Assembly: GCA_041648665.1 (NCBI GenBank)
Contig: JBAZOP010000003.1
Coordinates: 5,082-69,081, forward strand
Source of the DNA: a bacterium
GTDB lineage: Bacteria; UBA10199; 2-02-FULL-44-16; JAAZCA01
Length of the DNA stretch: 64,000 bases
Direction of reading: 5' to 3'
Shown here: positions 1,267-43,173 of the stretch, piece by piece
How the letters are laid out: every line of letters starts with the position of its first letter
Position numbering within the stretch: position 1 is the stretch's first letter
Translations under genes and position numbers: made by a program
The notes under the pieces: model-generated
The model's database searches: none
What the model saw: the letters and a program-made list of their open reading frames with translations, nothing else
Told to the model about the DNA's origin: nothing

Positions 1267-1268
1267 AA

Positions 1269-2348: not shown

Positions 2349-3409
2349 TTCGGCCCCACGCCGAGCCCCAAGCGCTCGCGGTTGTACTTTGCCTTGGCCT
2401 TCTCGCACCAGTCCAGGTGCTCCAGGTACCAGCGGACGGTGTGGCGTATGTCTTTCTCGAAGTCGCGCTTCGGCAACCACCCCGTATGCCTCCACAGCTT
2501 CGATGCTTCGATTGCGTAGCGAAAGTCGTGCCCCGGGCGATCCGTCACGAACCCGATCAGCCTGCGGTATCCGTTCTGGTTCTCTCGTAGCCAGCTGAGC
2601 GCGTCGCAGATCGAATGCACGACCTGTAGCGTGTTCCGCTCTTGGCTACTACCAATGTTGTAGACCTCCCCAGGCGTCCCATCGGTCGCCACACGTATGA
2701 GCGCTTCGCAGTGGTCGTCCACATGGATCCAGTCACGCACGTTCATGCCGTTGCCGTAGACCGGGATGGGCTTGCCCTCGATGGCGTTCAAGATCGTGAG
2801 CGGGATGAGCTTCTCGGGGAACTGGTAGGGGCCGTAGTTGTTCGAGCAGTGCGTGATGATCGTCGGCATCCCGTAGGTCTTGTTGTACGCGCGCACGAGG
2901 TGGTCCGACGCGGCCTTCGTCGCTGCGTAGGGTGAGTTGGGAGCATACGGGCTGTTCTCGGTGAACTTCGCGTCATCCATCCCAAGCGACCCGTAGACTT
3001 CATCGGTGGAGACGTGGATGAATCGGCACGAGCCTGAGCAGCCGCTGCCGCTGCTCCAGTAGTCCTTCACGGCGTTGAGCATCCTCGCTGTGCCCGCAAC
3101 GTTGGTTGACACGAACGGCATGACCCCGTCGATGGATCGGTCCACGTGGGTTTCAGCGGCGAGGTGGAACACGACCGTGGGCTTGAACCACGCAATCTCG
3201 TTGTAGAGATTGCCGGTCCTGATGTCCAGATCCGCAAACTCGAACCGAGGATCTTCAGCCACGTCGGCGAGGTTCTCCATGCTGCCCGCGTAGGTAAGCG
3301 CGTCAATGATGTACACGCTGACCTCGGGCTCCTTGAGCAGCATGCGCACAAGGTTCGATCCGATGAAGCCTGCGCCACCCGTTATGACGTACCTCTTTTC
3401 GCCGCTCAC
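2345..3409 (-). CDS. rmlB: dTDP-glucose 4,6-dehydratase
   Basis: Rossmann motif ITGGAGFIGSNL, catalytic YAATKAASD (YxxxK) and HVSTDEVYG. GTG start at 3409 overlaps the upstream stop. Confidence 0.85.
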   Translation of the reverse strand: MSGEKRYVITGGAGFIGSNLVRMLLKEPEVSVYIIDALTYAGSMENLADVAEDPRFEFADLDIRTGNLYNEIAWFKPTVVFHLAAETHVDRSIDGVMPFVSTNVAGTARMLNAVKDYWSSGSGCSGSCRFIHVSTDEVYGSLGMDDAKFTENSPYAPNSPYAATKAASDHLVRAYNKTYGMPTIITHCSNNYGPYQFPEKLIPLTILNAIEGKPIPVYGNGMNVRDWIHVDDHCEALIRVATDGTPGEVYNIGSSQERNTLQVVHSICDALSWLRENQNGYRRLIGFVTDRPGHDFRYAIEASKLWRHTGWLPKRDFEKDIRHTVRWYLEHLDWCEKAKAKYNRERLGLGVGPK

Positions 3410-3780
3410 TTTCCCGGCTCCCGCTCCCTGGCCTCCGCCGAGATGTTGAAGCGCTGCTCGTACTCGCGACACTTCTTCAGCAGCCGCGTGTTCTCGTTCT
3501 TGTACCAGCTGATCTTGTCCTGCATTGCCCAGTACCGTGAGGCGTACCAGCCCATCTTCTTGCTCAGCGGCGCGAGCACCTTGTACAGCACGTCCACGTC
3601 TCCCTTGGAGAGCTTGCCAAGGAGCACACCCGCAAGCAGAGCCTCCTTGGAGGCCTGCACATCGGCCCCATCCTGCTGGTCAGTGTAGCCAGCTGGCGGG
3701 GCCTCTGGGTACTCGTCCGGGAGACGCGCGGCCCGGTCAAGGTCGGCGGTCTCCACCACAGCTTTCTTCTTTTCAGTCAT
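3406..3780 (-). CDS. hypothetical protein (124 aa)
   Basis: ORF with ATG at 3780, three nucleotides after the SSB stop. Charged composition. Confidence 0.5.
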   Translation of the reverse strand: MTEKKKAVVETADLDRAARLPDEYPEAPPAGYTDQQDGADVQASKEALLAGVLLGKLSKGDVDVLYKVLAPLSKKMGWYASRYWAMQDKISWYKNENTRLLKKCREYEQRFNISAEAREREPGK

Positions 3781-4233: not shown

Positions 4234-4980
4234 TCAGGCCGCGCGCTTGATGATCTGCGGTCCGAAGTGCTTTCCAGCGAGGTATCCGAGCCCGGCGAAG
4301 ACGAGCAGGGTGACGATCTTCCCCGTCGAGAAGCCGCCTGCGTAGTTCGGGGGCACGAGGCACTTGGGCCGGAACGGCAGAAGGTCGGGGTCCACGTGCC
4401 CCACGTACTGGATCTCGGACAGCTTGCGCTTCTTCGTGCTGATGTACTGGAGCCCGCCGTGATCCTTGTCGGTGTCTCCGCCATCCACGCTCTGAAGCCA
4501 GTCCTCCGCGGCGTTCATGTCCACGCAGGTGAACGTGTGCGTGAGCAGGCCCGAGCCGACGACGAGGTAGCAGCCGGGGAAGAAGGACCAGTCGGCCTTC
4601 CATGCGCCGAACTTCCGGGCGAAGTCGATGAAGCCCTTGTTGTTGCCGCCGCTGAACGCTGTGCCAGCTTCGTAGGGGAGCCACAGGTTCGGGTCTGCGA
4701 CCCCGCTTCGCCGCTGGTTGCCACGCACAACGAGGCCGCAGGTGGAGACGCCAACCGTTGCGTACGTCTCGTAGTTCTCGACGTGGAAGGGCCGGTCCAG
4801 GTCCCAGTAGGCACCAGGAGGTAGGGGGCCAAGGATGTCCTCGAACTCCGCACGCGCCGCAGGGTTGCCGCTCCACGCCGAGAGGCCGATCATGCTCTTG
4901 GCGTTCGCGATGATGACCTCGCGCCGCCCCGCCGGGGTGGAAGGAGTTGCGATCTCGCGGAGAGGAATTGCTGCACCCAT
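4234..4980 (-). CDS. hypothetical membrane-anchored protein (C-terminal TM)
   Basis: 248-aa ORF with C-terminal hydrophobic helix IVTLLVFAGLGYLAG. Tightly packed in the operon. Confidence 0.5.
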   Translation of the reverse strand: MGAAIPLREIATPSTPAGRREVIIANAKSMIGLSAWSGNPAARAEFEDILGPLPPGAYWDLDRPFHVENYETYATVGVSTCGLVVRGNQRRSGVADPNLWLPYEAGTAFSGGNNKGFIDFARKFGAWKADWSFFPGCYLVVGSGLLTHTFTCVDMNAAEDWLQSVDGGDTDKDHGGLQYISTKKRKLSEIQYVGHVDPDLLPFRPKCLVPPNYAGGFSTGKIVTLLVFAGLGYLAGKHFGPQIIKRAA

Positions 4981-4983: not shown

Positions 4984-5688
4984 TTAGCCCGTGTACATGA
5001 TCGACGCGTCGTGCATGGCCTGCGCGAACGAATACGGTTTCGGATCGTCTTCGCTGAACATGCGCCTGTATGACCAGCTTCCATCCGGGGAGTAGATGAA
5101 GATGGTGTCGAAGAACCGCTCGAAATTGTCCGCGATCTCGAACACACCCTCGTCATCAACAGTGATGTGAAGTAGCTCCGTAACAAACCGCTGGTTTGCC
5201 GGATCGCTGAGCCACTTTTTCTTGGACATGTTGTCGTCCGCGCTCCACGACTTCGCCGCGTTGTCGAATACGGCTTCCACGAACCGACGAACTTCCTCTG
5301 GCAACGCGACGCCCTTTGCGGATCGCCTTACCGCCGCGGGACGGCTACGTTCCACATCGTACCCGAACTTCCCCCCGCGCGCTTTTCGTGTCGCTTTCTC
5401 GATCGCGTCCGCGTCGGCAGTGCTAGGCCCCCACGGAGGCCGCTCTTCACCAGCTTCGCGAGCAGCCGTAGAGAACGACACAATCGACCCGACAGCCATG
5501 GCGGCGATCTGGTCGTACGCCATTGGCTCTCGCGTATCCACGACAGTGCCGTACTCGTCCTCCCATGACTTTGGGGCCTGATCCTCGAAACCGATCTTGA
5601 TGCCACCTACCTCCACCGTACCGGAATATTTGGATCGACCAAGATATTCGACCCGGATCTTCGCGTCGCCAATGTACCGCGTTGCCAT
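4984..5688 (-). CDS. hypothetical protein
   Basis: ATG at 5688 (MATRYIGD...) directly after the stop of the esterase gene. The 319-aa track ORF has an Arg-rich, implausible N-extension. Confidence 0.5.
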   Translation of the reverse strand: MATRYIGDAKIRVEYLGRSKYSGTVEVGGIKIGFEDQAPKSWEDEYGTVVDTREPMAYDQIAAMAVGSIVSFSTAAREAGEERPPWGPSTADADAIEKATRKARGGKFGYDVERSRPAAVRRSAKGVALPEEVRRFVEAVFDNAAKSWSADDNMSKKKWLSDPANQRFVTELLHITVDDEGVFEIADNFERFFDTIFIYSPDGSWSYRRMFSEDDPKPYSFAQAMHDASIMYTG

Positions 5689-5689
5689 G

Positions 5690-6523
5690 CTACGCCGCCT
5701 TCCTCCACAACTGATGGAGCAGGAAACCAACGATCGCTCCGCCGACAACAGCCGCGACCTTCGCGCTGCCCCCACCCTTAGCGAACACCAGCTCACCGCG
5801 CGCCCACGGGGCCAGCAGCGTGCGCCACACGGCCTCCTGGCACTCGTTGGCTTGGTAGATGTGCGCCTGCTTGTCGTCGGGCGGGAAGTCCGGTGGGTAC
5901 ACGCCCAGGATGAACAGCGCACCGATCCCAATCGCTTCCGCAACGGGGATGCCCAGGTCGATGTCGATCGGTTTCGCGCCCACGCTGTCGCCCAACGACA
6001 GGGCCGTCTCGCGCGTCCCTGGGTAGGTGGGCGGCAGGATCTTGGAGTGCGTGACGATCATCATCTTCTCGCCGCGCGACGCGCTGGAGGCGAAATCGAG
6101 CCAGTGCTGCCCAACCTTCGTGACCCTCCAGGTCTCGCCCTTCGCTCGCTCTGCGTACGAGGGCTGCGCGCCCTTCCACCCGCCGTGCATGCCATCCACC
6201 ACGTACAACGCGCTCACCGCATCGGAGTCACCCGTGTTCTTGATGATCTGTCCGATGCCCCAGCCGCCTGCGGAAAAGCCCACAAGTCCGATGAGCCCGC
6301 TCGGGTCTGCGCCATGCTCTTCGATGAACGGACGCAGGAACTCGCCACCGTGCGCGTCCTGGTAGTTCTTGACCCAGGCCTGATGGTTGTCCGAGCCCGC
6401 AGCAGAGACGGGGATCGACAGCACGACCGGGCGCACAGATTCGTCAGGCCACAGCTCGCTCAGAAGCGGTCCGCAGATCGTCGGCGTGCAGGAGAAGTCG
6501 GTGATCAAGATGGGGCGGGGCAT
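5690..6523 (-). CDS. alpha/beta-hydrolase fold serine esterase with C-terminal TM anchor
   Basis: Nucleophile elbow GFSAGG (GxSxG) followed by DGMHGGW. AGGAAG RBS before ATG 6523. C-terminal hydrophobic helix. Confidence 0.6.
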   Translation of the reverse strand: MPRPILITDFSCTPTICGPLLSELWPDESVRPVVLSIPVSAAGSDNHQAWVKNYQDAHGGEFLRPFIEEHGADPSGLIGLVGFSAGGWGIGQIIKNTGDSDAVSALYVVDGMHGGWKGAQPSYAERAKGETWRVTKVGQHWLDFASSASRGEKMMIVTHSKILPPTYPGTRETALSLGDSVGAKPIDIDLGIPVAEAIGIGALFILGVYPPDFPPDDKQAHIYQANECQEAVWRTLLAPWARGELVFAKGGGSAKVAAVVGGAIVGFLLHQLWRKAA

Positions 6524-6533
6524 GTGGGTCTTC

Positions 6534-6830
6534 CTACTTCCAGTCGAACGCCTTCACCCAGAAGTCCAGCCCGGGTCCGTTGCCGAACGTGTGCTGAAGC
6601 CTCCTCGTGACAGCTTCCTCACACGCGGAGAAATTCGGCCCTACGCAGTCGATGTTCACCATCGTCACCAGTTGGTCTTCGTGACCCTTCTGCTTGCTGA
6701 AGTCCATACCCTTCGCAAGTACGTCCTGCGGAGCCCAAGCGTCCACAAGTTGGTAGTAGCGCTTCGTCTCGGAGATGACGGAGCTTTCCACTCGAACAAC
6801 GCAGCGAATTTTGCCATCTGACATTTTCAC
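6534..6830 (-). CDS. hypothetical protein (98 aa)
   Basis: GTG start at 6830 with AAGGAG RBS 7 nt upstream. Confidence 0.45.
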   Translation of the reverse strand: MKMSDGKIRCVVRVESSVISETKRYYQLVDAWAPQDVLAKGMDFSKQKGHEDQLVTMVNIDCVGPNFSACEEAVTRRLQHTFGNGPGLDFWVKAFDWK

Positions 6831-6842
6831 GATCGTTCTCCT

Positions 6843-7781
6843 TCACCGCTGGTGCGTCTTGTCCGTCAGCGAGTCGTAGTGCTCACCTTTGTGGCCCTCG
6901 TGCAGCGTGCAATAGTGCCACCGGCTTCCCGCCTGCCACGCGAACTGGCAGCGGTTCGTGGGGTCCAGGAAGGAGTAGCCGTGGCGAGCGTTCGGGATCA
7001 GACGCTGCGTCGCATCGTCACACAGCGAGTCCATGTGCTGTCCACTGTGCCCCTTCTCCCTGGTGCACATAAACGTTCGCTTGCCGCTCTTCCACGTGTA
7101 CTCGCACCGATTTGGGGGCTTCCAGCCCTGCGCCTTGGGATCCGTCAAGCGACTGTAGGCGTTGGGTGCCGCCCGGCCTGACAGAAACGACTTCACTTCA
7201 TCCGGCGTGCCCTCGAAGATGCGGTGCCACGCGGGTTCGTCCGGTGCCGAAAGCTCGACGACCAGGATCGGAGCCCCACGCTTCTCGGACCAGTAGGCGC
7301 ACTTCTTCAGGATGCGGACCTTGGCACCGGGGAAGCCCGCGACGTTGACGCCGCGGGAGTCGGTCGCGAACTTCTCCGCTTCCTGCGCGACCGTGGCAGC
7401 CTTCAAGGCTTCGATGCGAGGCACAGCGGCTTGAACTACGCGAGCGCTGACGTGAGAGCGCTGGGGAGTCTCGTTGTGACAAGCGTTCTTCTTCGCCCAC
7501 GCGCTTGGTACTTCCTGTGCGAAAACCGTGTAGGACTTGCCAAGACGCTCAGACAGCCTGTCTCGCACAGCGGACTCGCAGGCTTTCTCGCTTGGGTCAG
7601 AGCACTCGACCACAACCTGTGTGATCTCTCTCTCGCCTTTCGTCGAACCCATCGGCGCGGTTGTCCGCAGATACGGATCTGCGCTCTTGATGTCTTCTCT
7701 CTTGAAACAATCAAGAATCATCTGCAAGTTGTGCTTATAACACCTGTTGAAAGGCTGCTCGATAACAACATAACAGATCAT
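6843..7781 (-). CDS. hypothetical protein with tandem Cys/His repeat modules
   Basis: Two tandem copies of R-C-x-(F/Y)-x-W-x-x-G-x-R-x-x-x-C-T-x-x-x-G-H-x-G-(E/Q)-H-x-D-S-L, a Zn-binding-like pattern. GGAG RBS before ATG 7781. Confidence 0.5.
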   Translation of the reverse strand: MICYVVIEQPFNRCYKHNLQMILDCFKREDIKSADPYLRTTAPMGSTKGEREITQVVVECSDPSEKACESAVRDRLSERLGKSYTVFAQEVPSAWAKKNACHNETPQRSHVSARVVQAAVPRIEALKAATVAQEAEKFATDSRGVNVAGFPGAKVRILKKCAYWSEKRGAPILVVELSAPDEPAWHRIFEGTPDEVKSFLSGRAAPNAYSRLTDPKAQGWKPPNRCEYTWKSGKRTFMCTREKGHSGQHMDSLCDDATQRLIPNARHGYSFLDPTNRCQFAWQAGSRWHYCTLHEGHKGEHYDSLTDKTHQR

Positions 7782-7789
7782 GACAACTC

Positions 7790-8587
7790 CTATATCGTCT
7801 CGACTTCAACCACCGGAGGGTTCCCCTCCCGATGCCCAACGATTCTCATTCTCCTGCCGAACAAAACCGTCTCCCTGTCATGCGCGGTAGGGGCGGCGAG
7901 GAGCCATTCCGAATGCTCTGTCGTCACAAACACATCCGTCGTCGGGCACGTCAGCTCTGCCACAACCGGGTTGCCGCGCACGACCGTCATCACGTGCTTG
8001 CCATACGCGTACTCTGTCGCCGCCTCAAACGATGGCGTCCACGACTCAAGAGGCCTCGTCTCGACAATCGTTCCGACCTTCGATGACAAGAGCTTGCCAC
8101 CGTGCGCGCTGTGAAGACCTCGGTACACGGTGATGGTCGGCTTCCCGATTTTAGCTACCGTCTCGTCCGAAACCGCCTTCATTGCCAAAGCGATCTTCCT
8201 CGGATCGTAGTCCTCTTTCGCACGCTCGCCCGTGAACATGTCTCGCGTCGCGATCTGCATCTTGCCGGTGTCGTAGTGGTAGATCACGGTCCTGCTAAGC
8301 GCTCCTCGCGGGTCCAGCGTGAACCGGAACGTGCCGTCTTCGTCGTCGTACGGAGCCCCCGGTGTATCTGCCCCGGTGGCAAGCCCGCTCGCTTTCGCAA
8401 TGCTCATCATCACGAGCGTCGGCTCGCAAACCGCAGACGCCCTCCACTGGCTGACCATGAACTCAAGGATCTGGCGCGTCACCGGGTCCGCAGACCAGTT
8501 GCGTCGCGCGCTTCGACTCCTTCGGCCAGCCATGCCCAGGATTCTACAACGACTCGCCAAATTCGACACGCGGCGCGACCCCGCCAT
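7790..8587 (-). CDS. hypothetical protein
   Basis: 265-aa ORF. The start may instead be the internal MAGRRS Met near 8533. Confidence 0.4.
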   Translation of the reverse strand: MAGSRRVSNLASRCRILGMAGRRSRSARRNWSADPVTRQILEFMVSQWRASAVCEPTLVMMSIAKASGLATGADTPGAPYDDEDGTFRFTLDPRGALSRTVIYHYDTGKMQIATRDMFTGERAKEDYDPRKIALAMKAVSDETVAKIGKPTITVYRGLHSAHGGKLLSSKVGTIVETRPLESWTPSFEAATEYAYGKHVMTVVRGNPVVAELTCPTTDVFVTTEHSEWLLAAPTAHDRETVLFGRRMRIVGHREGNPPVVEVETI

Positions 8588-8611
8588 CGGCCTGTCGCGA
8601 GATCGTATTGG

Positions 8612-9091
8612 TTACCGCTCGCTCTGCCACAGATCGCAGCAGAACATCTGCGGAGAATACGGCAACTTGGAAGCATCCTTCGGCTTGATACCCGTCGAAA
8701 GCCGCCAGTTCTGGTACCCGACGTTCGCGCACTGCGCTTGCCGGTTGAGCCACCCGCAGTTGGCGCACATGGCCCCGCCGCTTGGCACGCGGGAGCCCCA
8801 CTTGTGGTCGGGCGGAAACGCGAACACCCCGTTCTTGATCCTGCACACGCACTGGCCACCGTCCGCGTGTGTCTCCATCTCGACGAGGTACGTGTAGTAG
8901 TGCTCGTTCTCGCGAATGTGCGCCATTGCGATGGCAAAGTAGACGAAGGGATCCCCGCGCGCGATGTCGGCGTGTTCCTGCTCCACCCACATGCCGACGA
9001 CCATCTGCTCGACCTGATCGTCGTTCAGCGCAACGCCCAGGCGCGAAGCGATGTGCTTCACGTCCGCGTTGCTGAAACGCTTGCGAGCCAT
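8612..9091 (-). CDS. hypothetical Cys-rich protein
   Basis: 159-aa ORF with CxC...CANCGW...C pairs. Confidence 0.45.
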   Translation of the reverse strand: MARKRFSNADVKHIASRLGVALNDDQVEQMVVGMWVEQEHADIARGDPFVYFAIAMAHIRENEHYYTYLVEMETHADGGQCVCRIKNGVFAFPPDHKWGSRVPSGGAMCANCGWLNRQAQCANVGYQNWRLSTGIKPKDASKLPYSPQMFCCDLWQSER

Positions 9092-9095
9092 GACC

Positions 9096-9620
9096 TTACT
9101 TGGAGATGAGCGTCTTGATCGACGCCGCCGCGACGAGCACGCCGACGACGGCTGCGCCCATGGCGATCGGCTTGGCGTACTTGGTGATCGTCAGCACGAT
9201 GCCCATGTACTTCTTCTCGTAGGCTGCGGCCAGCGTGTTGATCCGCTTCTCGGCGATCGGCAGCGCGATGTTCAGAAGCTCAGGGATCTTCGGCTTGGCT
9301 GCATCCACAAGTCCCGGGATCTTCGGCTTCACCACCGTGTCGATCACTTCGGCCAGCTTCGGCTTCGCCGTATCGATCAGCTCGGGCAGGCGTGCCTTCG
9401 CAACGTCGATCGCCATGTTCGCCACGACGGGGACGACCTGATTGATCTTCTCCTCGACGGGGGGCCACACCGCGCCCAGGATCTGCTGGGTCAGCTGGCT
9501 CGCGAGCGCCGACACGTCCAGCGACCCGGTGACGCTGAACCCGAGCCCCTGAAGGTTCGGGGCGGCTGAAAGTCTGCGAACGGGAGGAGCCTTGGGGTAG
9601 ACCCGGTACATCTCGTACAT
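9096..9620 (-). CDS. hypothetical membrane protein with internal AKPK(I/L)PEL repeats
   Basis: C-terminal TM (IAMGAAVVGVLVAAASI). Repeated TAKPKLAEVID / AAKPKIPELLN units are visible as DNA repeats (gggatcttcggctt). Confidence 0.45.
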   Translation of the reverse strand: MYEMYRVYPKAPPVRRLSAAPNLQGLGFSVTGSLDVSALASQLTQQILGAVWPPVEEKINQVVPVVANMAIDVAKARLPELIDTAKPKLAEVIDTVVKPKIPGLVDAAKPKIPELLNIALPIAEKRINTLAAAYEKKYMGIVLTITKYAKPIAMGAAVVGVLVAAASIKTLISK

Positions 9621-9641
9621 AGGCCTGATTCTACCGCAGGA

Positions 9642-10115
9642 TCACCGGAAACTGAAAGCGATCGGGTCCGCGATGAGAAGCTCGCCGGGCTGGGCTGGCG
9701 CAAGCGAAGCTCCCGCTCTGAACTCCACGCCCTTCCCGCTCTTGCCGAACAGCGTCAGCAGGGACCGCACGTCGGCCCAGGCGCTGTTGAACTCCGCAAA
9801 GACGGTCTTCAGGTCGGGGGCCTTGCACATCTCGATACAGGCCACCAGGACCGAGTTCGCGGCCTTCAGACCCGCGCCAGCCTTCGCCAGGGCGTCGCGC
9901 AAAGGGCCCTTCACGTTTTCGGGCATGGGCACCGTGTCCACGATGCTCTGCACCTGCGCGAGCGCGAAGGCAGCATCCGCAACGATGCTCTCGGTCTTCA
10001 CCAGCACCGGCATCACGACGTTGCACTTGTTGCATCCCGACGTGGTGATCGCCGCGCCGATCAGCCCGGTCACCACCAGCAGCCCAAGCATGAACGAAAC
10101 GAAGAAATGTCGCAT
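9642..10115 (-). CDS. hypothetical secreted protein or lipoprotein
   Basis: N-terminal signal peptide MRHFFVSFMLGLLVVTGLIGAAITTSGC. Confidence 0.45.
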   Translation of the reverse strand: MRHFFVSFMLGLLVVTGLIGAAITTSGCNKCNVVMPVLVKTESIVADAAFALAQVQSIVDTVPMPENVKGPLRDALAKAGAGLKAANSVLVACIEMCKAPDLKTVFAEFNSAWADVRSLLTLFGKSGKGVEFRAGASLAPAQPGELLIADPIAFSFR

Positions 10116-10124
10116 CCTGTCCTC

Positions 10125-10361
10125 CTATTCGGGCATCGGCGGCAGCATGATCCGCGGCACGATGTCGTGCGTGTGAAAGTTCGCGAAGTGCTCGATGCGC
10201 CAGTAGGCCATGTCGGGGCCACGAATGCAGACCCAGTCGAATAGCTCGCCGCACTTGTCGCACTCGGCGTGGATCTGGATCTGCCCGCGCCGCATCCCGA
10301 CCAGCGCGTACTGCACATGCTGCACGCGAGGGTGACGAACCATCTGCACTGCGTTGCTCAT
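10125..10361 (-). CDS. hypothetical protein (78 aa)
   Basis: ORF packed tightly between neighbours. Contains a CDKCGE pair. Confidence 0.35.
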   Translation of the reverse strand: MSNAVQMVRHPRVQHVQYALVGMRRGQIQIHAECDKCGELFDWVCIRGPDMAYWRIEHFANFHTHDIVPRIMLPPMPE

Positions 10362-10364
10362 TCC

Positions 10365-10580
10365 TCAGCCTGCCCCAATATCTTTGCAGAAGCCCCACTT
10401 GAGCTGCTTGCACGCGAGGTACAGTACCACGGCGAAGCTGCCCATGCCTAGAGCTGCCTTCTTGGCCTGCGCCACATCCTCGTTGCTCATCTCCGGAGCG
10501 TCCTGGACGATCTTGATTGCGGCGATCGCGCCCAGCCCAACGATGAGGCCTCCTGCGAGCTGTTGGCGGGTCAGCGTCAT
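10365..10580 (-). CDS. small two-TM membrane protein (holin-like topology)
   Basis: 71 aa (MTLTRQQLAGGLIVGLGAIAAIKIV...GSFAVVLYLAC). ATG overlaps the upstream stop (ATGA). Confidence 0.4.
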   Translation of the reverse strand: MTLTRQQLAGGLIVGLGAIAAIKIVQDAPEMSNEDVAQAKKAALGMGSFAVVLYLACKQLKWGFCKDIGAG

Positions 10581-11158
10581 TTGCTCGCACTCGCCGCCGG
10601 GACCGGCTTCGACGTTGTCCTGGCGACCGCGACGTTGACCGCGTAGGTCGCCACCGATCCGACGATGAGCATGGCGAGGCCCACAACGGCTGTGAACCGC
10701 GCCTTGCTCCACTCGAACTTCTGCGTCTTGAGCACCATCTGGCTCGCGTGCGCCGCTCCCAGCTTGCTCTCCAGGTCTCGGATATAGAACACCTTGCTGT
10801 TCTCGGACATGTCCTCCAACTTCTTGGTGATGTCCGTCTTGCCCTGCTCGACCGCCCCGAGCCGCTGCTCGATCCCGCCGTGCTTGAGCGAACACACGCG
10901 GTCCTGATCGAGCTTCATCTCGGTGAAGCGCCGATCCACTTGCTGGGTGTGGCTGGTCAGTGTGGAGTTCAGCGCGATGACACCGTCCGCGGCATGCGTG
11001 GTTGCGGCCATGATCTTGCCGAACATCTCCGTGATCTCACCGCCGCTGTCTCGCACACCCTGGAGTCCTTCCTTGATCTCCTTCAGCTCACGACCATGCG
11101 CCGCGAGAATCACGCTATGCTTCGCGACCGTTGTCTCAAGAGGTTCCGGAGGGGCCAT
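10577..11158 (-). CDS. membrane protein with coiled-coil segment
   Basis: 193 aa with a C-terminal TM (AVVGLAMLIVGSVATYAV). Confidence 0.45.
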   Translation of the reverse strand: MAPPEPLETTVAKHSVILAAHGRELKEIKEGLQGVRDSGGEITEMFGKIMAATTHAADGVIALNSTLTSHTQQVDRRFTEMKLDQDRVCSLKHGGIEQRLGAVEQGKTDITKKLEDMSENSKVFYIRDLESKLGAAHASQMVLKTQKFEWSKARFTAVVGLAMLIVGSVATYAVNVAVARTTSKPVPAASASK

Positions 11159-11468
11159 CGTTGTTACCTGCGTCTTTCGCGGTTGGTTTGTCGTCTGACA
11201 GAGGCGCGGCGGGCGATGCCTTCTGTGCGCTCAGCAGCGCCTTCACAATCACATCCAGAAGCCACGGCAGCTTGAACGTCCCCTTGCTCATGGCGGGCGT
11301 GACGACCAGAAGGAGCGCCGCATGCAGTCCGTTCCAGACCCTCGCCATCGTGTGGTTCTTGGGCTGGGGTAGCTGAGCCCAGGCGACGTTGAAGATCGCC
11401 CACGCGATGACCGCGACCTCCAGCGGGTGAGCCGAGATCCATGCCCAGATTGCCAACAGGTACGTCAT
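11136..11468 (-). CDS. small membrane protein
   Basis: Two hydrophobic helices (LLAIWAWISAHPLEVAVIAWAIF; LHAALLLVVTPAM). Confidence 0.45.
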   Translation of the reverse strand: MTYLLAIWAWISAHPLEVAVIAWAIFNVAWAQLPQPKNHTMARVWNGLHAALLLVVTPAMSKGTFKLPWLLDVIVKALLSAQKASPAAPLSDDKPTAKDAGNNDGPSGTS

Positions 11469-11471
11469 GTT

Positions 11472-12788
11472 CTACTCCGTGTACTTGTCCCACAGCAGCT
11501 TGCCGATGAGCCCGACGAGCGCGAAGCCGCCGACGATCTTGGCCTTCGCGATCAGCTTGGCCCGCTCGATTTCGTCCAGGCTGAACAGGTTCGTGAACAC
11601 GCCCTCCATGACGCAGGCTTCGGCGTCATCCTGTCCGAATGCGGATAGGCCTATCGGCACCAAGCGTTTCGGGTTGCGCTTGATGATGGTCCCCGTGGGG
11701 CCTCGCCTGGGCGCGACTAGCGAAGCGGCAGCTTGCAGCCCGAGAACCTTTCCGGACAGCCCTTCGAGCGCGCCCTTGGTGCATTCAGTCTTCCAGCGTT
11801 CGGCGAGCACGGTGCGCACGACTTCGCGCTGAATCACCTCGGCCTGGAACTCGTGGGCCGGGCCGCTGCTGATGACAGCGCGGCTGCACCCTGGTTCGGG
11901 TGACTGATCCTTCACGGCGACCCCAAGCGTGATGAAGTTGCCGATGGCCTCGGCGCGCGTGACGCCGTAGGGCGCGCGAAACATCGCCTTGTGCGGGCAC
12001 CCCTGCCACGCCGGGTACGGCTCCGTCCAGTACGTGCCCTGCTCGTCGGTATTGTAGCCAACGGGCCAGCTCTCCCGCGCCCCTTCCTCGACGAACAGTG
12101 CGGCTGGGTACAGAGACCCTTCGGGCCGATAGTCGCCAACGTCCTGCTTGACCAGCGAGATCAGCTTCGTGGCGGCTTCCGTGGTGGATGCGTAGGCATC
12201 ACCCGGCACCACCTGCGAGTGCGACACGACCATGCACTGCTTGCCCTTGGCCGCTTCGGCGGCAAAGGCCCTGATGTTGTCGAAGTCAGCGTCGCGTACG
12301 AAGTCTTGCACCAGCGCGCCATCGATTCGCTCGTTGAACTGACGCGCGCGCGCCATGTCCACCAGCTTCGTGTCCCACGACGCGTGCATGCCGTCGCAGT
12401 AGTACACGAAGTCCACGAGCGCGCGATCCGCCGGGTTCGCAAGGATCTCGCTCACCGCGCCGCACCCGGCTGAAAAACCCATGATGCCCACGCGACCGAT
12501 GGTGTAGCCCTTCGGGATCCTCAGAACTCCCGACGACCCGAGCACCCGCTTCTTCAGCCAAGGAGCGACGAACAGCCCGCCGTTCTCATCCTTGAACGAC
12601 TTGACGGCAGCTTTGTAGTGTCCGCTGCCAACCATGCCGCTCGTAGCGGGAAGCGGCACTTCGGTGACGATCGGCGTGGGGGCGTTGCCCACGCTGTACA
12701 TCCACAGCGTCTCAAGCCAGTCGCCCATCAGCGGCTTCGCCGAGTAGGCCGTGATCAGCACGTCGATGTACTTCGCCATGCCGCCCAT
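11472..12788 (-). CDS. alpha/beta-hydrolase fold serine esterase (paralog of 5690-6523) with C-terminal TM anchor
   Basis: GFSAGCG nucleophile elbow followed by CDGMHASW, the same arrangement as the other esterase. C-terminal TM (IVGGFALVGLIGKLLW). The track ORF begins at a TTG at 12815; ATG at about 12788 is preferred. Confidence 0.55.
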   Translation of the reverse strand: MGGMAKYIDVLITAYSAKPLMGDWLETLWMYSVGNAPTPIVTEVPLPATSGMVGSGHYKAAVKSFKDENGGLFVAPWLKKRVLGSSGVLRIPKGYTIGRVGIMGFSAGCGAVSEILANPADRALVDFVYYCDGMHASWDTKLVDMARARQFNERIDGALVQDFVRDADFDNIRAFAAEAAKGKQCMVVSHSQVVPGDAYASTTEAATKLISLVKQDVGDYRPEGSLYPAALFVEEGARESWPVGYNTDEQGTYWTEPYPAWQGCPHKAMFRAPYGVTRAEAIGNFITLGVAVKDQSPEPGCSRAVISSGPAHEFQAEVIQREVVRTVLAERWKTECTKGALEGLSGKVLGLQAAASLVAPRRGPTGTIIKRNPKRLVPIGLSAFGQDDAEACVMEGVFTNLFSLDEIERAKLIAKAKIVGGFALVGLIGKLLWDKYTE

Positions 12789-12828: not shown

Positions 12829-13269
12829 TTACACCTTCTCGGGATCAGGACGCTTCGGAGGGACTTCGACCACGAAGCCGTCCGGGCATTTCTCGGGATT
12901 CACCGGGTGTTTCGGCTCAACGTGCAGGCTGTGCCAGTGCTCCTGGATCTTGCCGTCCATGAATGGCGTACCGTCCCACTGCCCGGCGATCTGCTTTCGC
13001 AGTTCATCGATTTTCTCGCACAGGACGTTCTGCGTGTGCTCGAAGTCCCGGCCCATCGCGTTCCAGAGGCGGTACCAGTAATCGCGCTGGTCCGACAGGT
13101 CGCACATCGCCTTGTTCAAACGAAGCATACGGGCGCGAAGCTCGGTCAGCTCCTTCACCATCGCAGGCACGTCGTCGAGCCTGCCAGCGAGCGCAGAGTA
13201 GGCGAGACCGATGCGCTGTGCGAAGACCTTGACGTTCACCAGCTGTTCTCCTTTTTGGGCGCGCACCAT
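12829..13269 (-). CDS. hypothetical protein
   Basis: Preferred start is MVRAQKGE. The upstream part of the track ORF is Arg-rich. An alternative Zn-ribbon ORF (CGLEIYKC...CRKCG) overlaps in another frame. Confidence 0.3.
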   Translation of the reverse strand: MVRAQKGEQLVNVKVFAQRIGLAYSALAGRLDDVPAMVKELTELRARMLRLNKAMCDLSDQRDYWYRLWNAMGRDFEHTQNVLCEKIDELRKQIAGQWDGTPFMDGKIQEHWHSLHVEPKHPVNPEKCPDGFVVEVPPKRPDPEKV

Positions 13270-13446
13270 TTGAGGTGCGTCTCGGCAACGACAGATGCCG
13301 CTGCCATCCCGCCGTGCTTGCCGCAGCGGGCCACGATGATTCCGCATTTGCGGCAGAACACCCCATCGGGGGTTTCCTCTGTACAACGAGGCCCCCCGGT
13401 CGGCTCATCCTCCCCATGGGTGCACTTGTAGATTTCCAAGCCGCAC

Positions 13447-14265
13447 CTACGCCTTCGCCGGTTCTTCCGGAGACGCCTCCGCCACAAGCTCCTCGTCCTT
13501 CTCGAAAGGGTTCTTCCCCTCGAACATCCGCCTGAGCTGCTTGTGTCGGAGAAAGACAAGCTGCGAAAAATCCTTCGAGTCGTCTTCCAGCTCGATACGG
13601 AAGCACGGGCACGGGACATCCTTGCGCGCCCTTGCGGCCACCGTCTCTCCCCAGTGTTCGCTCAGCTGCGAAGGCTCGATGGTTTCGATCCACTCCATCT
13701 TGTAGAGCTTCGTTCCGATGACCACGCTCACCCACGCGCCTATCTGCTGCGGAAAATGGACATAACCGTGCAGCGGCACGATGCTCATGGGAGCTTGGTA
13801 CGGTATCCCATCGTCGTCCTTCGGTTCCACGATCATGAGAGCGCGCCTAACGGCACCCTCTTCGTCGAGCGGCCCATCGAGAAGCAGCCGAATTTCATGA
13901 TCGCAGAAGTTCACAAACACGACGGCTTTGACGGTATCGGGTAGCCACTGGAGAAGCGCGTGTCGCTCATCAACCGGGTTGTCCCTGTGCGACTCCTTCG
14001 CCGGTTCTTCAGCAGCCGCTCCGTACCTTCGCTCCTCTGTCTCACAAGGGCACGGGAACACCACGGCGTCGAACGCCTCGCTTGCCTGAAGCCATGCCGA
14101 CAGCCTGTGGCGGGTCCTTCTGTCGAGCTTGCCGATGGTGCGCATGATGTCGAACTCGTCCAGAATGATCGTGGCCCGACGCTCCTCCGCAGACCCTGGC
14201 ATGTCCTCTGTGGGGATCGAAATGGTTTCTTCGGCAGGCCCATCGAAAATACCGTTGCCCATCAC
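13447..14265 (-). CDS. hypothetical acidic protein with CPC pairs
   Basis: 272 aa. Its C-terminus EASPEEPAKA resembles the C-terminus of the upstream 803-aa protein (EAAPEEPAKE). Confidence 0.5.
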   Translation of the reverse strand: MMGNGIFDGPAEETISIPTEDMPGSAEERRATIILDEFDIMRTIGKLDRRTRHRLSAWLQASEAFDAVVFPCPCETEERRYGAAAEEPAKESHRDNPVDERHALLQWLPDTVKAVVFVNFCDHEIRLLLDGPLDEEGAVRRALMIVEPKDDDGIPYQAPMSIVPLHGYVHFPQQIGAWVSVVIGTKLYKMEWIETIEPSQLSEHWGETVAARARKDVPCPCFRIELEDDSKDFSQLVFLRHKQLRRMFEGKNPFEKDEELVAEASPEEPAKA

Positions 14266-16677
14266 CTACTCCTTAGCCGGCTCTTCCGGAGCCGCCTCCG
14301 CCTCGGGCTCCTTCTGCTGCTTGGCGATGAATTCCGCCTGCACCTTCATGAGCACGCGCCACACGTCGTCCAGGTAGCGCTTGCCCTTGCCGGTTGCCAG
14401 GACAGTCCCGCTGGTCGCCGGGTCACTGCGCAGGCTCGCGACAAACCTGTCCTTCTCGATGACCTGGGGAATCATCACGACGGTGCTCTCGCCGTTCTGC
14501 TCGATGAATGTCTTGACCAACACCTCGGGCGGCACCCTGTGAGAGCACGCCTCCTTGATCGTATTCACGAGCCCAGCAACCTGCTCGCGGTTGATCCCTG
14601 GGATCCAGTCGAACGAGGACCACGGCTCCTTCTTCGGCGCGACGTTCTGCTTGGCCGCGGGCTGCGACACGGGGGTGTCTGCCGCAACGGCCTGAGCCGC
14701 CGTCACAGGCCCCTGCGGAGCCTGTTCGATGACCACTGGCGGCGGGTACTGGGGCTGCTGCACGGGCTGCTGCGGGGCCTGCCGCATCGGCTGCTGCGTG
14801 ATGGACGGCTGCGTCATCGGGTTGAACGGGACCGGAGGCATGCCGGGACTGCGCGACGACATGCGGTTGTGCTCGTCTGCGCTCACCTGCGGCCCCGGCA
14901 GGTTGTCGAACGAAGACTGCACGGCTGGCCCCTCGCTGTCGGCGAACTGCACCCGGTGCACACGCCTGGGCGGAGGCAGCATCTGACGAGCCTGCTGCAC
15001 GGGAGGCACCTGCTGCACCTGCACCTGCTGCACAGGAGGACTACCCTTCTGGAGCAAGTCCTTGATCTGTGGGATCAGCGTGTCGGCCTGGGAGATGGCC
15101 ATGAGGATGGCCTTCTGATACCAAGGCGCGTTCGCCGCAGCCGCCGCCATCGCGGCCTCTTCTGGAGTCGGCCCGCCTTCCTTCTCGTCTGTCGCGATCC
15201 CGAGCGCAACGGCGGTCTCCCGAAGCTCCTGCACCTTGTTCAGAAGCGGCTTGTTCTGCTCCGCGAGGTGGGCGTTGACGAGCTGCGCCTTGCTCTGGAG
15301 ATCCGCCACCGTCGCGGCAAGCTGGTTCTGAAGCGCGCGCACCTCGAATCCGTGCGCCGCATCGAGCGTCGTCTTGGTGTTCGTCTCGACCGCCTCGCGC
15401 ATACGCGTTTCGCGATCGTGACTGCGCTGGATGTCGTCGAGCCGCTGTTGCCCGATGCGCTGCGCTTCTTCCATCGACCGCTTGTGCTCTTCGCGAAGGT
15501 AGCGCTCACGCCGATCGAAGTCGTCCTTCAGCTCGCGCTCCCGGCGTTCGATGATCGTATCCTTGTCGCGCATGCGATCTTCAAGTGAAGCAACACGGGT
15601 CTGCATCTCGGACCGAACGCGCTCGACCTCGCGCTCCTTCTCTCTCTTCTCGATCTCGATCAGCCGCTCGAACTCCCGCTGCCTCATCTCCATCTCGCGT
15701 GCGTGCTGCTCCTGCACCGCGCGCATGTCATCGGAGTTCGCCCCGCCGCGCACCGACGAGTTGATCAGCGCAACGGCCTTGACCATCTCGACCATGTCGT
15801 TGGGCTTCTGGCCGATCTCGGCGATCTGCCTGCGCATCTCCATCATCTCGGCTTGCTTGGCTTCGAGCTGACGTTCCAGAAGCGCAACTTGCTGCTGCGC
15901 CATCTCCTTGGTCGAGTCGATCGCGCGCTCCTGCTGACGACCCATCACGCTGAAGACCGTATCGGGCAAGCCCTGCTGAGCCTGCTGCGGCCTGTTTGCC
16001 ATGCGCTCTGCGAAGCTCAGAAATGGCGCGTAGTCTTGCGGCTGCTGTTGCTGCGGCATCTGCATGCGCATGCCCGCGCCTCCGTAGGGGCTGCCACCAC
16101 CCGGGAACGTGAACACCATAGGTCCCTCACTACTCTCGCTGTCTGCGATCGGAAGGCTCTGCATGTTGGGATCGACAGGTACGGAGAACTCCGCAACGGC
16201 AACATCCACCAGCGCGGGAGGCCCGCCCATGTTCGAGCTGTCACCTTGCTCCATCACGCCGTAGACCCGGTACTTGTACCCGCCGTAGAGCCGCAAGAAC
16301 TCCTGCGTGCCGATCATCATGTTGTGCATGCCGACGATACCGGAAACGCGCTGGCGCTGCCCCGTGCCGGGATCGAGATGCCACTCGGGCTCGATGCGCT
16401 GTACGCGCAGCTTGCCGACCTTCCGGAGATCCGGGTACGCGCTGTACATCGTCTCAAGAGATGGGAACTTCGGCACGTTCATGCCGCCGCGGCGACGGCT
16501 GATCTCGGCACGCCGCTCGACATCCTCCATCGGCGCGCGCGACTCGGGAAGCGATCCCATGTCGATCCCGCCCATCGGATCGTACGAAGTAGCAGCAGGA
16601 CCGCCTGATCGACGGCGCGCGGGGAACGGGAGTTCGGGCAGCGGCTGTTCTTCAGCCGTCGTGGGTTCGTCGGCCAT
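14266..16677 (-). CDS. large coiled-coil, Gln/Pro-rich protein (scaffold-like or tape-measure-like)
   Basis: 803 aa. Central heptad-rich region (EMRRQIAEIG...RERELKDDFDRRERYLREEH). C-terminal region has PQQPVQQPQYPPP repeats. ATG preceded by GGTGAGGT and two copies of the 30-bp upstream repeat. Confidence 0.6.
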   Translation of the reverse strand: MADEPTTAEEQPLPELPFPARRRSGGPAATSYDPMGGIDMGSLPESRAPMEDVERRAEISRRRGGMNVPKFPSLETMYSAYPDLRKVGKLRVQRIEPEWHLDPGTGQRQRVSGIVGMHNMMIGTQEFLRLYGGYKYRVYGVMEQGDSSNMGGPPALVDVAVAEFSVPVDPNMQSLPIADSESSEGPMVFTFPGGGSPYGGAGMRMQMPQQQQPQDYAPFLSFAERMANRPQQAQQGLPDTVFSVMGRQQERAIDSTKEMAQQQVALLERQLEAKQAEMMEMRRQIAEIGQKPNDMVEMVKAVALINSSVRGGANSDDMRAVQEQHAREMEMRQREFERLIEIEKREKEREVERVRSEMQTRVASLEDRMRDKDTIIERRERELKDDFDRRERYLREEHKRSMEEAQRIGQQRLDDIQRSHDRETRMREAVETNTKTTLDAAHGFEVRALQNQLAATVADLQSKAQLVNAHLAEQNKPLLNKVQELRETAVALGIATDEKEGGPTPEEAAMAAAAANAPWYQKAILMAISQADTLIPQIKDLLQKGSPPVQQVQVQQVPPVQQARQMLPPPRRVHRVQFADSEGPAVQSSFDNLPGPQVSADEHNRMSSRSPGMPPVPFNPMTQPSITQQPMRQAPQQPVQQPQYPPPVVIEQAPQGPVTAAQAVAADTPVSQPAAKQNVAPKKEPWSSFDWIPGINREQVAGLVNTIKEACSHRVPPEVLVKTFIEQNGESTVVMIPQVIEKDRFVASLRSDPATSGTVLATGKGKRYLDDVWRVLMKVQAEFIAKQQKEPEAEAAPEEPAKE

Positions 16678-19257: not shown

Positions 19258-19544
19258 CCTTGTCTTCCGCCTAGATACAAGTTCATGTCGCCGTGCTCAC
19301 CGTGCAGCCGGTACGGCATCTTGCCCTCCGCGATGAGCTTCATCCTCCAGATCGCCAACCACAGCAGCACGCCGACGAAGCCGACGACGACTACGCCCAC
19401 AATGGCCTTGGTCGCCGTGGAGGTCTCCTTCGCGCAACGGGGCTGGCCGTTCAGGTAGTACAAGGACTGCCCGGGTGGGCAGCTGGCCTGGGCGACCGTA
19501 GGCGGGTCCGCGCTGAGAGAGTGGGGGCGGGTAACCTGGATCAT
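19254..19544 (-). CDS. small single-TM protein (holin-like)
   Basis: 96 aa with TM (IVGVVVVGFVGVLLWLAIW). Immediately upstream of the peptidase, with start/stop overlap. Confidence 0.4.
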   Translation of the reverse strand: MIQVTRPHSLSADPPTVAQASCPPGQSLYYLNGQPRCAKETSTATKAIVGVVVVGFVGVLLWLAIWRMKLIAEGKMPYRLHGEHGDMNLYLGGRQG

Positions 19545-39107: not shown

Positions 39108-39155
39108 GCGTGTCGAAACTTTGAGGATCTGGGGTTGCAGTATAGAATCTGCGCC

Positions 39156-39500: not shown

Positions 39501-39504
39501 CGTC

Positions 39505-40377: not shown

Positions 40378-40378
40378 C

Positions 40379-41720: not shown

Positions 41721-41723
41721 TTC

Positions 41724-42452: not shown

Positions 42453-42462
42453 GGAAATCACG

Positions 42463-43116: not shown

Positions 43117-43173
43117 CCGATGGATGGCGTCTTCAACACCAACTCGAATCGGTCGTAGACAAAGGACACGGAC

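Follow-up and report, generated by a model that had tools for sequence, protein, structure and literature searches.

Two paralogous alpha/beta-hydrolases with C-terminal membrane anchors in a phage-like metagenomic element: candidate envelope esterases

The DNA analysed here, referred to as the window, is a stretch of 64,000 nt from a 134,065-bp metagenome contig labelled 'MAG: bacterium' at NCBI. Two of its genes, named est1 and est2, encode paralogous serine hydrolases with an alpha/beta-hydrolase fold, which belong to a sizeable family lacking annotation in curated libraries and which end in a predicted transmembrane (TM) helix. The role proposed for them, to which somewhat less than an even chance is given, is that of tail-anchored envelope esterases working beside peptidoglycan hydrolases, most likely at host lysis. 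The two genes have the following features (aa, amino acids; residues of est2 in the 435-aa numbering).

5690-6523, minus strand: est1, a tail-anchored alpha/beta-hydrolase of 277 aa with a conserved Cys12-x4-Cys17
6272-6274, 6194-6196 and 5861-5863, minus strand: codons of the proposed est1 triad (Ser84, Asp110 and His221, respectively)
5693-5770, minus strand: C-terminal TM helix of est1, about the last 25 residues
11472-12788, minus strand: est2, 438 aa by the gene call of the collection and 435 aa in NCBI, with a ~90-residue insertion and a longer linker relative to est1, and with invariant Cys333 and Cys389
12471-12473, 12393-12395 and 11853-11855, minus strand: codons of the proposed est2 triad (Ser103, Asp129 and His309, respectively)
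11475-11564, minus strand: hydrophobic helix of the C-terminal part of est2, preceded by an invariant x-G-[LF]-G (Gly382)

Fold, catalytic residues and family of est1 and est2

The two proteins are 30% identical over ~200 residues (BLASTP, E = 2e-21) and contain the motifs GFSAGGWG...VVDGMHGGW (est1) and GFSAGCGA...YCDGMHASW (est2), which bears out a first-pass annotation of this DNA in which two paralogous GxSxG esterases had been noticed. An AlphaFold2 model of est1 built from a 16-sequence alignment (pLDDT 92.5, pTM 0.86) had an alternating order of strands and helices. When this model was used to search the PDB and viral libraries with Foldseek, all matches with E ≤ 1e-3 were alpha/beta-hydrolases; they were remote (E ~1e-4, TM-score ~0.4) and included FphH, PETases, cutinases, PPT1, lipases, a phospholipase and thioesterases. 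The GFSAG elbow occupies residues 82-86 of est1 and 101-105 of est2. Structure prediction had been named at first pass as a means of locating the triad; in the est1 model Ser84 is predicted to follow strand 78-83, Asp110 to close strand 103-109, and His221 to open the last helix. The order is thus Ser-Asp-His, with the Asp in a DGxH motif 26 residues past the Ser and following strand 6; an acid after strand 6 with such a Ser-acid spacing is seen in alpha/beta-hydrolases of the thioesterase type. Three features of the alpha/beta-hydrolase fold were found: a parallel sheet with helices, a G-x-S-x-G after a strand and a Ser-acid-His order. Ser84, Asp110 and His221 are proposed as the catalytic triad from the motifs and the model, and Ser103, Asp129 and His309 would be their equivalents in est2.

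A profile search gathered 1,632 cluster representatives at E ≤ 1e-3, 1,106 of them at E ≤ 1e-10 (clusters formed at the 50% identity level). Among 50 diverse members, Ser84 and Asp110 were invariant and His113, Ser160 and His221 were conserved in at least 90%; the same Ser, Asp and His residues were invariant within each subtype. No model in Pfam, NCBIfam or PHROG matched the est1/est2 domain, and when the 50 sampled members were scanned with Pfam none had a match over the esterase domain (0/50). This is therefore a real and sizeable alpha/beta-hydrolase family left without annotation in curated libraries. It falls into two branches, a cellular one with N-terminal signal peptides and a mobile-element one with no signal peptide and a C-terminal anchor. 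The cellular relatives were mostly Gemmatimonadota, in a genome scan whose search pattern favoured that phylum; the same scan revealed no prophage that would name a host, and the neighbourhoods of 35 Gemmatimonadota homologs offered no conserved neighbour and no clue to the substrate. Some cellular members are fused to LysM (two members), 3-keto-disaccharide hydrolase, CBM9, NAGPA, GDPD, sulfatase or heparinase domains. Against solved structures, the family profile matched a carboxylesterase (E = 1.9e-5), a lipase (E = 2.5e-4) and a carbohydrate esterase and an acetyl xylan esterase (both E ~0.03), with an esterase of the polyhydroxybutyrate (PHB) depolymerase family also among the weak matches. 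The cellular branch, its domain fusions and the solved-structure matches favour an ester on a glycan or on the wall over a mycolate as the substrate.

This result bears on the suggestion, made in the first-pass annotation, that the two enzymes resemble the LysB esterases of phages infecting mycolic-acid bacteria. On that account est1 and est2 would cut an outer lipid layer from the wall (mycolyl-arabinogalactan or that of another lipid-modified envelope), marking a host with a complex envelope. In its favour are the general alpha/beta-hydrolase fold with its Ser-Asp-His residues, the 63% G+C of the window and a weak structural similarity to esterases of actinophages and one LysB model (E = 1.5e-3 to 7e-3). 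However, Pfam and PHROGs gave no cutinase, PE-PPE or LysB match, and tblastn with est1 and est2 found nothing in 50,697 phage genomes, thousands of actinophages among them. In addition, the closest cellular relatives are Gemmatimonadota rather than Mycobacteriales, with carbohydrate-active domain partners, and a probable lipoprotein encoded between est1 and est2, together with two wall hydrolases of a relative (an SLT transglycosylase and an M15 peptidase, see below), suits an ordinary two-membrane host better. A LysB-type function is scarcely credible on this evidence, and the idea of a mycolic-acid host is not supported.

Membrane anchors and partnership with wall hydrolases

TM helices were called by a hydropathy scan rather than a trained predictor and are given as KD17, the Kyte-Doolittle mean over 17 residues. 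In agreement with the first-pass annotation, both esterases have a C-terminal helix: KD17 reached 1.94 at residues 253-269 of est1 (where the model has a helix at 255-276) and 1.91 at residues 409-425 of est2, and the helix is retained in most orthologs of either type. Basic residues follow the TM segment in the family tails (RK, KHRR, RRLRR, RRRRQ), spaced Cys residues are conserved in both the est1 type and the est2 type, and neither est1 nor est2 has an N-terminal signal peptide. The basic residues after the helix, the spaced Cys and the secreted cellular relatives are the grounds for placing the catalytic domains on the wall side of the membrane. Tat-dependent (twin-arginine translocation) tail anchoring was considered and rejected, as neither esterase has an N-terminal twin-arginine signal.

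In bacteria, the usual orientation of a tail-anchored protein is towards the cytoplasm. If est1 and est2 were oriented in this way, their substrates would be lipids of the inner leaflet or lipid-linked precursors (phospholipids, undecaprenyl-linked compounds), and they would remodel or weaken the membrane or stop wall synthesis. This would account for the missing signal peptides, for the lipases, phospholipase and thioesterases among the Foldseek matches, and for a gene block co-oriented with early-looking genes. It sits poorly with the secretion of cellular homologs and their links to carbohydrate-active or LysM domains, with conserved spaced single Cys that suggest disulfides, with the basic residues after the TM helix, and with the two wall hydrolases mentioned above, which have the same anchor as their neighbouring esterase and must reach peptidoglycan. 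A cytoplasm-facing role is a long shot.

Those hydrolases are encoded in L003, a viral contig from IMG/VR of which 20 kb were examined. Four consecutive genes specify an SLT transglycosylase (Pfam E = 1.4e-22), a GNAT protein, the esterase and an M15/VanY peptidase (E = 2e-9). The SLT, esterase and M15 proteins end in one homologous C-terminal module, TM-AD..WRL.DRL (...AIAYVLADRQWRLTDRLVGSISEAI; ...GALLLADMRWRLVDRILGRA; ...GAVAYMFADIQWRLTDRLVDSIKEAIG), which within the 20 kb occurs only in these three hydrolases. An anchor common to two peptidoglycan hydrolases and an esterase is strong evidence that the three would be delivered to the same site and act on the same target structure. Divergently beside this row lies a second, unrelated esterase gene (L003 8079-8951, minus strand), of the SGNH/DUF459 type with an N-terminal TM helix, so that two esterase types stand beside wall hydrolases in L003. 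The L004 protein is a fusion of the esterase domain with a Cys/His domain, and its gene follows one for a membrane-anchored trypsin-like protease; a CHAP match of the C-terminal domain is sub-threshold (E = 0.006), lacks solved-structure support and is taken as tentative. In L088 an SLT gene lies within the same gene run as the esterase homolog, and a DUF5661 gene 5-6 kb upstream of it.

The window itself encodes one peptidoglycan hydrolase with a membrane-protein gene at its side.

18685-19257, minus strand: NlpC/P60 peptidase of 190 aa (Pfam PF00877, E = 9e-8, 32.5 bits against a cut-off of 23)
19066-19068 and 18919-18921, minus strand: NlpC/P60 catalytic residues, Cys65 in DCSG (first codon of the motif given) and His113 in HIML
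19254-19544, minus strand: single-pass membrane protein of 96 aa (KD17 2.81) encoded between the sigma-factor gene and the NlpC/P60 gene, with no Pfam family

The first-pass annotation had described an NlpC/P60 enzyme with an N-terminal TM helix and an adjacent single-TM protein, and both were recovered. The N-terminal helix contains Gly and Ala (KD17 2.12), with no basic residue before it; further matches of the peptidase were to CHAP (Pfam, 0.005) and to PHROG 329, minor tail protein (E = 3.7e-7). It is an ordinary member of its family with an unusual N-terminal helix. The sigma-factor gene (19568-20068; Sigma70_r2, E = 4.4e-10) is followed by the gene for the 96-aa protein and then, with a 4-base overlap, by that for the peptidase. 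As this layout is typical of a sigma/anti-sigma pair, the 96-aa protein could be a holin or, equally, an anti-sigma factor.

In the mechanism proposed for est1 and est2, the tail helix would sit in the cytoplasmic membrane with the catalytic domain on its outer side, facing an ester-bearing polymer of the wall or envelope. The first guess for the bond cut is an O-acyl group, e.g. O-acetyl, on peptidoglycan or another wall glycan, and the second a lipid ester. The esterases would strip ester groups that hinder peptidoglycan hydrolases or tie envelope layers together, with the NlpC/P60 enzyme as partner in the window and the SLT and M15 enzymes as partners in the relative. Until needed, the enzyme would be kept at the membrane by its anchor; by analogy with the anchored endolysins M4Lys and Enc34 ORF39, the moment of need would most likely be host lysis. 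Topology, substrate, timing and any release step are in each case what we infer for est1 and est2. The envelope role is favoured because of the shared anchors in L003, the secreted or LysM-fused cellular homologs and the weak carbohydrate-esterase matches. O-acetyl groups on peptidoglycan block lytic transglycosylases. An SLT enzyme encoded beside the esterase in L003 would fit a removal of O-acetyl groups like that performed on peptidoglycan by Ape1 (PMC6365954). Of the lysis and envelope-remodelling system suggested at first pass, the envelope part is thus retained for these reasons, while a compact lysis cassette and a holin match were not found.

The block around the esterases and the nature of the element

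Relatives of the block were studied in two independent metagenome contigs (L001 and L002) and in a third lineage (L094). From a 227-aa gene to the SSB gene, the block is syntenic at 46-73% identity in L001 and L002, and its est2 half is also syntenic in L094 (~35% identity); with synteny in three relatives, the gene arrangement is not due to chance. Ten small genes, described as mostly for membrane proteins, separate est1 from est2, again with conserved synteny. They are listed here in the direction of transcription, followed by the two genes downstream of est1.

11136-11468, minus strand: membrane protein of 110 aa encoded just downstream of est2, its N-terminal segments hydrophobic and its C-terminus polar (L001 ortholog, 53%)
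10577-11158, minus strand: 193-aa protein with a long helical N-terminal part, coiled-coil-like by eye, and a C-terminal TM helix of KD17 2.16 (ortholog, 58%)
10365-10580, minus strand: 71-aa protein with two TM helices (ortholog, 74% identical)
10125-10361, minus strand: 78-aa Cys/His-rich soluble protein (ortholog, 62%)
9642-10115, minus strand: 157-aa probable lipoprotein, with an N-terminal signal ending in ...TTSGC and then C-x2-C and C-x3-C pairs
9096-9620, minus strand: 174-aa tail-anchored protein (KD17 2.39) with AKPK.PEL repeats and an N-terminal APNLQGLG motif
8612-9091, minus strand: 159-aa DUF5661 protein (Pfam PF18905, E = 1.2e-8), its C-terminal half Cys-rich
7790-8587, minus strand: 265-aa soluble protein, no TM helix
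6843-7781, minus strand: 312-aa soluble protein, no TM helix, with two Cys...Cys-His-His repeats matching PHROGs 13875 and 23147
6534-6824, minus strand: 96-aa soluble protein, no TM helix, upstream of est1
4984-5688, minus strand: 234-aa protein downstream of est1
4234-4980, minus strand: 248-aa tail-anchored protein downstream of est1, with conserved Cys and His and followed directly by the SSB gene

The first-pass annotation had seen lipoprotein-like, holin-like and Cys-rich small proteins in this run. The lipoprotein, called from its signal sequence rather than by a trained predictor, is supported by the L001 ortholog, which carries a classic lipoprotein signal (MKKLWLILCLLGSLCFSQVGC), and the membrane and Cys-rich proteins were found as described; no holin family matched, the 110-aa and 71-aa proteins being holin-like in form only (size and number of TM helices). 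Pfam has no family for the 110-, 193-, 71- and 78-aa proteins. L094 encodes a 197-aa protein in the position of the 193-aa protein, and the ortholog of the 174-aa protein carries RPLQGLG. The 157-aa lipoprotein and the helix-rich 193-aa protein were considered as a spanin pair and rejected, given that the TM helix of the latter is C-terminal, where an i-spanin needs an N-terminal one, and that the lipoprotein is 157 aa long. The DUF5661 protein of the window had no match in the phage collection, and no mention of DUF5661 was found in the literature.

Around est1, the 234-, 312- and 96-aa genes each match part of a single 458-aa gene of L001 (14998-16374), located upstream of the est1 ortholog there, a pattern which indicates a probable gene fission or fusion plus rearrangement. 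L001 has in addition a 263-aa tail-anchored protein (13219-14010) without a counterpart in the window. The 234- and 248-aa proteins gave no match in family libraries or among solved structures. For the 248-aa protein, three homologs were found and the AlphaFold2 model failed (pLDDT 32.7); the idea that it might be a CHAP-like hydrolase was dropped, after hhalign comparisons with the window NlpC/P60 enzyme and the L004 C-terminal domain, and BLASTP against the L004 fusion, were all negative. On the far side of est2, a 272-aa protein (13447-14265, minus strand) and an 803-aa protein (14266-16677, minus strand) have near-equal acidic ends (...SPEEPAKA and ...APEEPAKE), and a 150-aa protein encoded upstream of this pair also has an acidic tail, EEEPDEPEPN; these tails may bind partners. 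The 803-aa protein is a Gln/Pro-rich coiled-coil protein and adjoins est2 in all the related contigs.

C-terminal anchoring is widespread in the window. Such a helix was present in 14 (KD17 ≥ 1.9) to 23 (KD17 ≥ 1.4) of its 73 predicted proteins.

39135-47796, 25441-25767, 54917-56005 and 58333-58728, plus strand: areas dense in tail-anchored proteins, by hydropathy
9096-9620, minus strand, and 25441-25767, 39135-40377, 41724-42452 and 58333-58728, plus strand: examples of genes with an xGLG motif, which est2 has near residue 382

In the products of seven consecutive genes (40379-47395, plus strand), a basic cluster comes after the TM helix, and A-x-(A/P)-N-R-R-R-R forms the end of six of these proteins (e.g. 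...YAKSRKKQAVANRRRRRHHRR); L090, a relative, has a similar tail near position 4613. The exposed domains of the seven proteins are rich in Cys, with C-x3-C pairs, two of them bear 'DG.WGP.S' motifs that resemble peptidoglycan-binding domains in sequence, and Pfam and PHROG gave no match for these NRRRR-tail proteins. The motif [LMIFV]-x-G-[LF]-G was found 21 times in the 73 proteins, against 4.2 ± 2.0 (maximum 11) in per-protein shuffles, a ~five-fold enrichment. It often takes the form PLQGLG, LRGLG or LHGLG, frequently lies shortly before the C-terminal TM helix and, in est2-type proteins, invariably occurs as x-G-[LF]-G between the catalytic part and the anchor. It may be a motif for cleavage, sorting or maturation; the consensus of the adenovirus protease, (M/I/L)XGX-G, resembles it. 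A 169-aa protein (37086-37595, plus strand) with an HELGH (HExxH) zinc-peptidase motif and a Pfam eCIS_core match (E = 1.2e-4) is a candidate, by its motif, for the processing protease. A wider interpretation, distinctly improbable though worth stating, is an element-wide system in which dozens of signal-less proteins (wall hydrolases and Cys-rich proteins) are anchored C-terminally and x-G-[LF]-G serves as the site of maturation or release, perhaps cut by the HExxH peptidase; the element would then be either a large, 134-kb virus with its own membrane or the user of a new 'anchor then clip' route for lysin export and timing.

The density of tail anchors and the xGLG motif keep alive another explanation, that the esterases and the other tail-anchored proteins belong to a virion membrane or adsorption apparatus and de-esterify the host wall at entry. 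The membrane-bound transglycosylase P7 of phage PRD1 and the deacetylases of tail spikes act on the host wall at that stage. Consistent with it are the C-terminal helices and NRRRR tails across the window, seen also in L090; the xGLG sites, if they are cleaved in maturation; the minor-tail-protein PHROG matched by the NlpC/P60 enzyme; and the conservation of the est2 block beside a coiled-coil protein of 803-814 aa. Homologs without a TM helix moreover occur beside genes of the tail-fibre-like (L005) or Laminin_G_3 (L088) kind. However, no double-jelly-roll capsid, packaging ATPase or any other capsid gene was recognised in the 84 kb of the ~134-kb contig covered by gene-content scans, the block adjoins genes for replication and recombination rather than recognisable structural genes, and three different wall hydrolases in a row in L003 look more like a lysis set. 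Furthermore, the membrane-containing phages have, to our knowledge, genomes far below 134 kb. A role at entry is unlikely, though not to be dismissed lightly.

The remaining gene content was considered for what it says of the element.

~21.3 kb down to 0.7 kb, minus strand: block in which all genes share this strand, with recognised genes for a sigma-70-family factor (19568-20068), the NlpC/P60 enzyme, the DUF5661 protein, SSB and RmlB/RmlA/RmlC-like proteins
remainder of the window, mostly plus strand: recognised genes for an AEP primase, an AAA_25 helicase, a ResIII helicase and two GT4 glycosyltransferases
past the left edge: RecT and YqaJ exonuclease genes, then the contig end
past the right edge (~1 kb): gene for a 1301-aa protein with a Phage_integrase (tyrosine recombinase) domain (11079-14984 of contig L093), then MazG-like and SNF2 helicase genes

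Pfam or PHROG scans of ~35 plus-strand open reading frames (ORFs) turned up nothing recognisable as a terminase, portal, capsid or type IV secretion gene. G+C was 61-66% along the window, except for a single 2-kb bin at 56%. No tRNA genes were found in the window, and scans of it for promoters and terminators gave counts at or below shuffle expectation, by which operon limits are not set. The dTDP-sugar genes (RmlA-, RmlB- and RmlC-like, 742-3472, minus strand) and the two GT4 genes (58896-62277, plus strand), one of which matches the 'GT4 in conflict systems' family, may serve sugar modification of DNA or of surface structures. Tandem paralogs of 254 and 272 aa (51435-52199 and 52278-53096, plus strand), with near-identical N-terminal halves and no match in Pfam or PHROG, may be structural proteins. 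Relatives of the esterases occur in four IMG/VR contigs (L003-L006), and extra searches of viral and metagenome sets for the tail-anchored type added one more close relative and one fragment. Because of these IMG/VR relatives and of tail-fibre-like genes in related contigs, the element is called phage-like.

Were it instead a large plasmid or an integrative element, the anchored hydrolases would open the wall locally so that machinery for transfer or secretion could be assembled, the part played in conjugation systems by VirB1-type transglycosylases and CHAP/NlpC-P60 enzymes. The AEP primase, AAA_25 helicase, SSB, RecT and 1301-aa Phage_integrase-domain protein would suit such an element, as would RadC in L001 and L002, the many surface-type Cys-rich membrane proteins and the failure to recognise a capsid or terminase gene in the 84 kb seen. 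Nevertheless, VirB4, VirD4 and relaxase were not matched among the large ORFs scanned, tblastn of est1 against 72,556 plasmids gave no match, the contigs L003-L006 belong to IMG/VR, and related contigs contain tail-fibre-like genes and the phage-associated GP88 and DUF5661/5662. A non-viral element is very unlikely.

Several observations weigh against est1 and est2 being envelope esterases that act at lysis. They are 5 kb apart in a ~16-kb same-strand run that continues into SSB and the dTDP-sugar genes, which is no compact holin-endolysin cassette and looks more like early or middle genes; no holin or spanin family of Pfam matched the small proteins at 9642-11468. The NlpC/P60 gene is 6 kb away from est2, on its upstream side, and no counterpart of it turned up where L001 and L002 are syntenic with the window. 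The est1 ortholog of these two contigs (L001 16377-17153; 258 aa, 72% identical) stops before any TM helix, which indicates that the est1 anchor is either dispensable or lost in that lineage. For a domain of 250-430 residues that lacks a signal peptide, no way of crossing the membrane is known, and the sequences would be compatible with a cytoplasm-facing topology. The homologs without a TM helix, which in L005 have tail-fibre-like repeat proteins on both sides and in L088 are grouped with three Laminin_G_3 proteins, suggest virion enzymes, and the dense tail anchoring may reflect a membrane structure made by the element, or clip-and-release, rather than a lysis device. O-acetylated peptidoglycan as the substrate is a guess. 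Finally, the 84 kb seen contained no recognisable gene for a capsid, a portal, a terminase or type IV secretion, and the element is only putatively viral.

Comparison with known systems

The nearest functional parallels are endolysins with a C-terminal TM domain. M4Lys of Salmonella phage BSPM4 lyses E. coli without a holin or Sec, and its TM domain is required (PMC7143992); ORF39 of Hafnia phage Enc34 likewise depends on its TM domain for lysis, and its authors remarked that the arrangement seemed confined to a single phage clade and that how the enzyme gets to the wall is unknown (PMC8943055); LysAP of Acidovorax phage AP1 is another such endolysin, according to its title and abstract (PMC8879335). 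Like them, est1 and est2 consist of a signal-less N-terminal catalytic domain joined by a flexible linker to a C-terminal TM helix with a basic end. However, the known enzymes are peptidoglycan hydrolases of one clade encoded in a compact holin/spanin cassette, none of which is evident here, whereas the window has an esterase domain, twice, which is not of the PHA02564 (lysozyme-like) family, and a single-helix anchor, in L003 a module common to SLT, M15 and esterase. The two are not members of the Enc34-type endolysin family, although by analogy they may work in a similar way. Membrane anchoring, described as atypical in the first-pass annotation, is so for esterases; endolysins with a C-terminal TM domain are, however, already on record (PMC7143992, PMC8943055), and within the window tail anchoring is common.

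The NlpC/P60 enzyme had been likened to signal-anchor-release (SAR) endolysins. It shares with them an N-terminal hydrophobic helix and a neighbouring single-TM protein; it differs in having no basic residues before the helix and in its neighbour, which follows a sigma-factor gene and has no holin family match, while SAR endolysins pair with a pinholin and have a weakly hydrophobic signal anchor that leaves the membrane on depolarisation. All SAR endolysins known to us belong to the muramidases rather than to the NlpC/P60 peptidases.

LysB is soluble and resembles cutinases. Like it, est1 and est2 would be phage-encoded alpha/beta-hydrolases with Ser-Asp-His residues, able to complement peptidoglycan hydrolases in breaching the envelope; unlike it, they are membrane-anchored, are unrelated to it at the level of sequence families, resemble it only in a generic way in fold (one LysB model came 23rd in the viral fold search, with E = 7e-3 and a TM-score of 0.26) and have relatives that point to carbohydrate substrates. 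By sequence they are not members of the LysB/cutinase family. The LysB gene lies in a lysis cassette beside that of lysin A, according to the abstract of PMC13056207.

Carbohydrate and PHB-depolymerase-type esterases (9x6a, 6k34, 6tkx, 6xyc, 8daj) were the best profile matches among solved structures and have the fold and GxSxG elbow in common with est1 and est2. The matches cover the N-terminal half of the secreted cellular members and end before the Ser-Asp-His region; they are weak (E = 1.9e-5 to 0.15), and in the est1/est2 family the acid apparently follows strand 6, not 7. With Ape1, an SGNH/GDSL hydrolase unlike the alpha/beta-hydrolases est1 and est2, only a functional analogy is proposed; in L003 the esterase gene is the second after that for SLT, with GNAT between. 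P7 of PRD1 is likewise a viral wall hydrolase held in the membrane by a C-terminal segment; PRD1, however, is a 15-kb internal-membrane phage with a double-jelly-roll capsid, a type not recognised here.

Anchored endolysins being already known, what is new is a set of membrane-anchored, phage-type envelope hydrolases built on a new esterase family and a modular anchor. Curated libraries lack a family of at least 1,600 clusters, with a thioesterase-like Ser-Asp(DGxH)-His arrangement, secreted cellular members and a tail-anchored mobile branch. The density of tail-anchored proteins in the window is itself unusual. If O-acyl groups on peptidoglycan are the substrate, the enzymes would be a phage answer to a common form of lysozyme and transglycosylase resistance and a possible additive to antibacterial enzymes. 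C-terminal anchoring of wall enzymes, previously seen in one enterobacterial phage clade, recurs here in an unrelated, uncultivated lineage of high G+C, and the portable anchor of the relative provides a second, independent system for the question of how such enzymes reach the wall.

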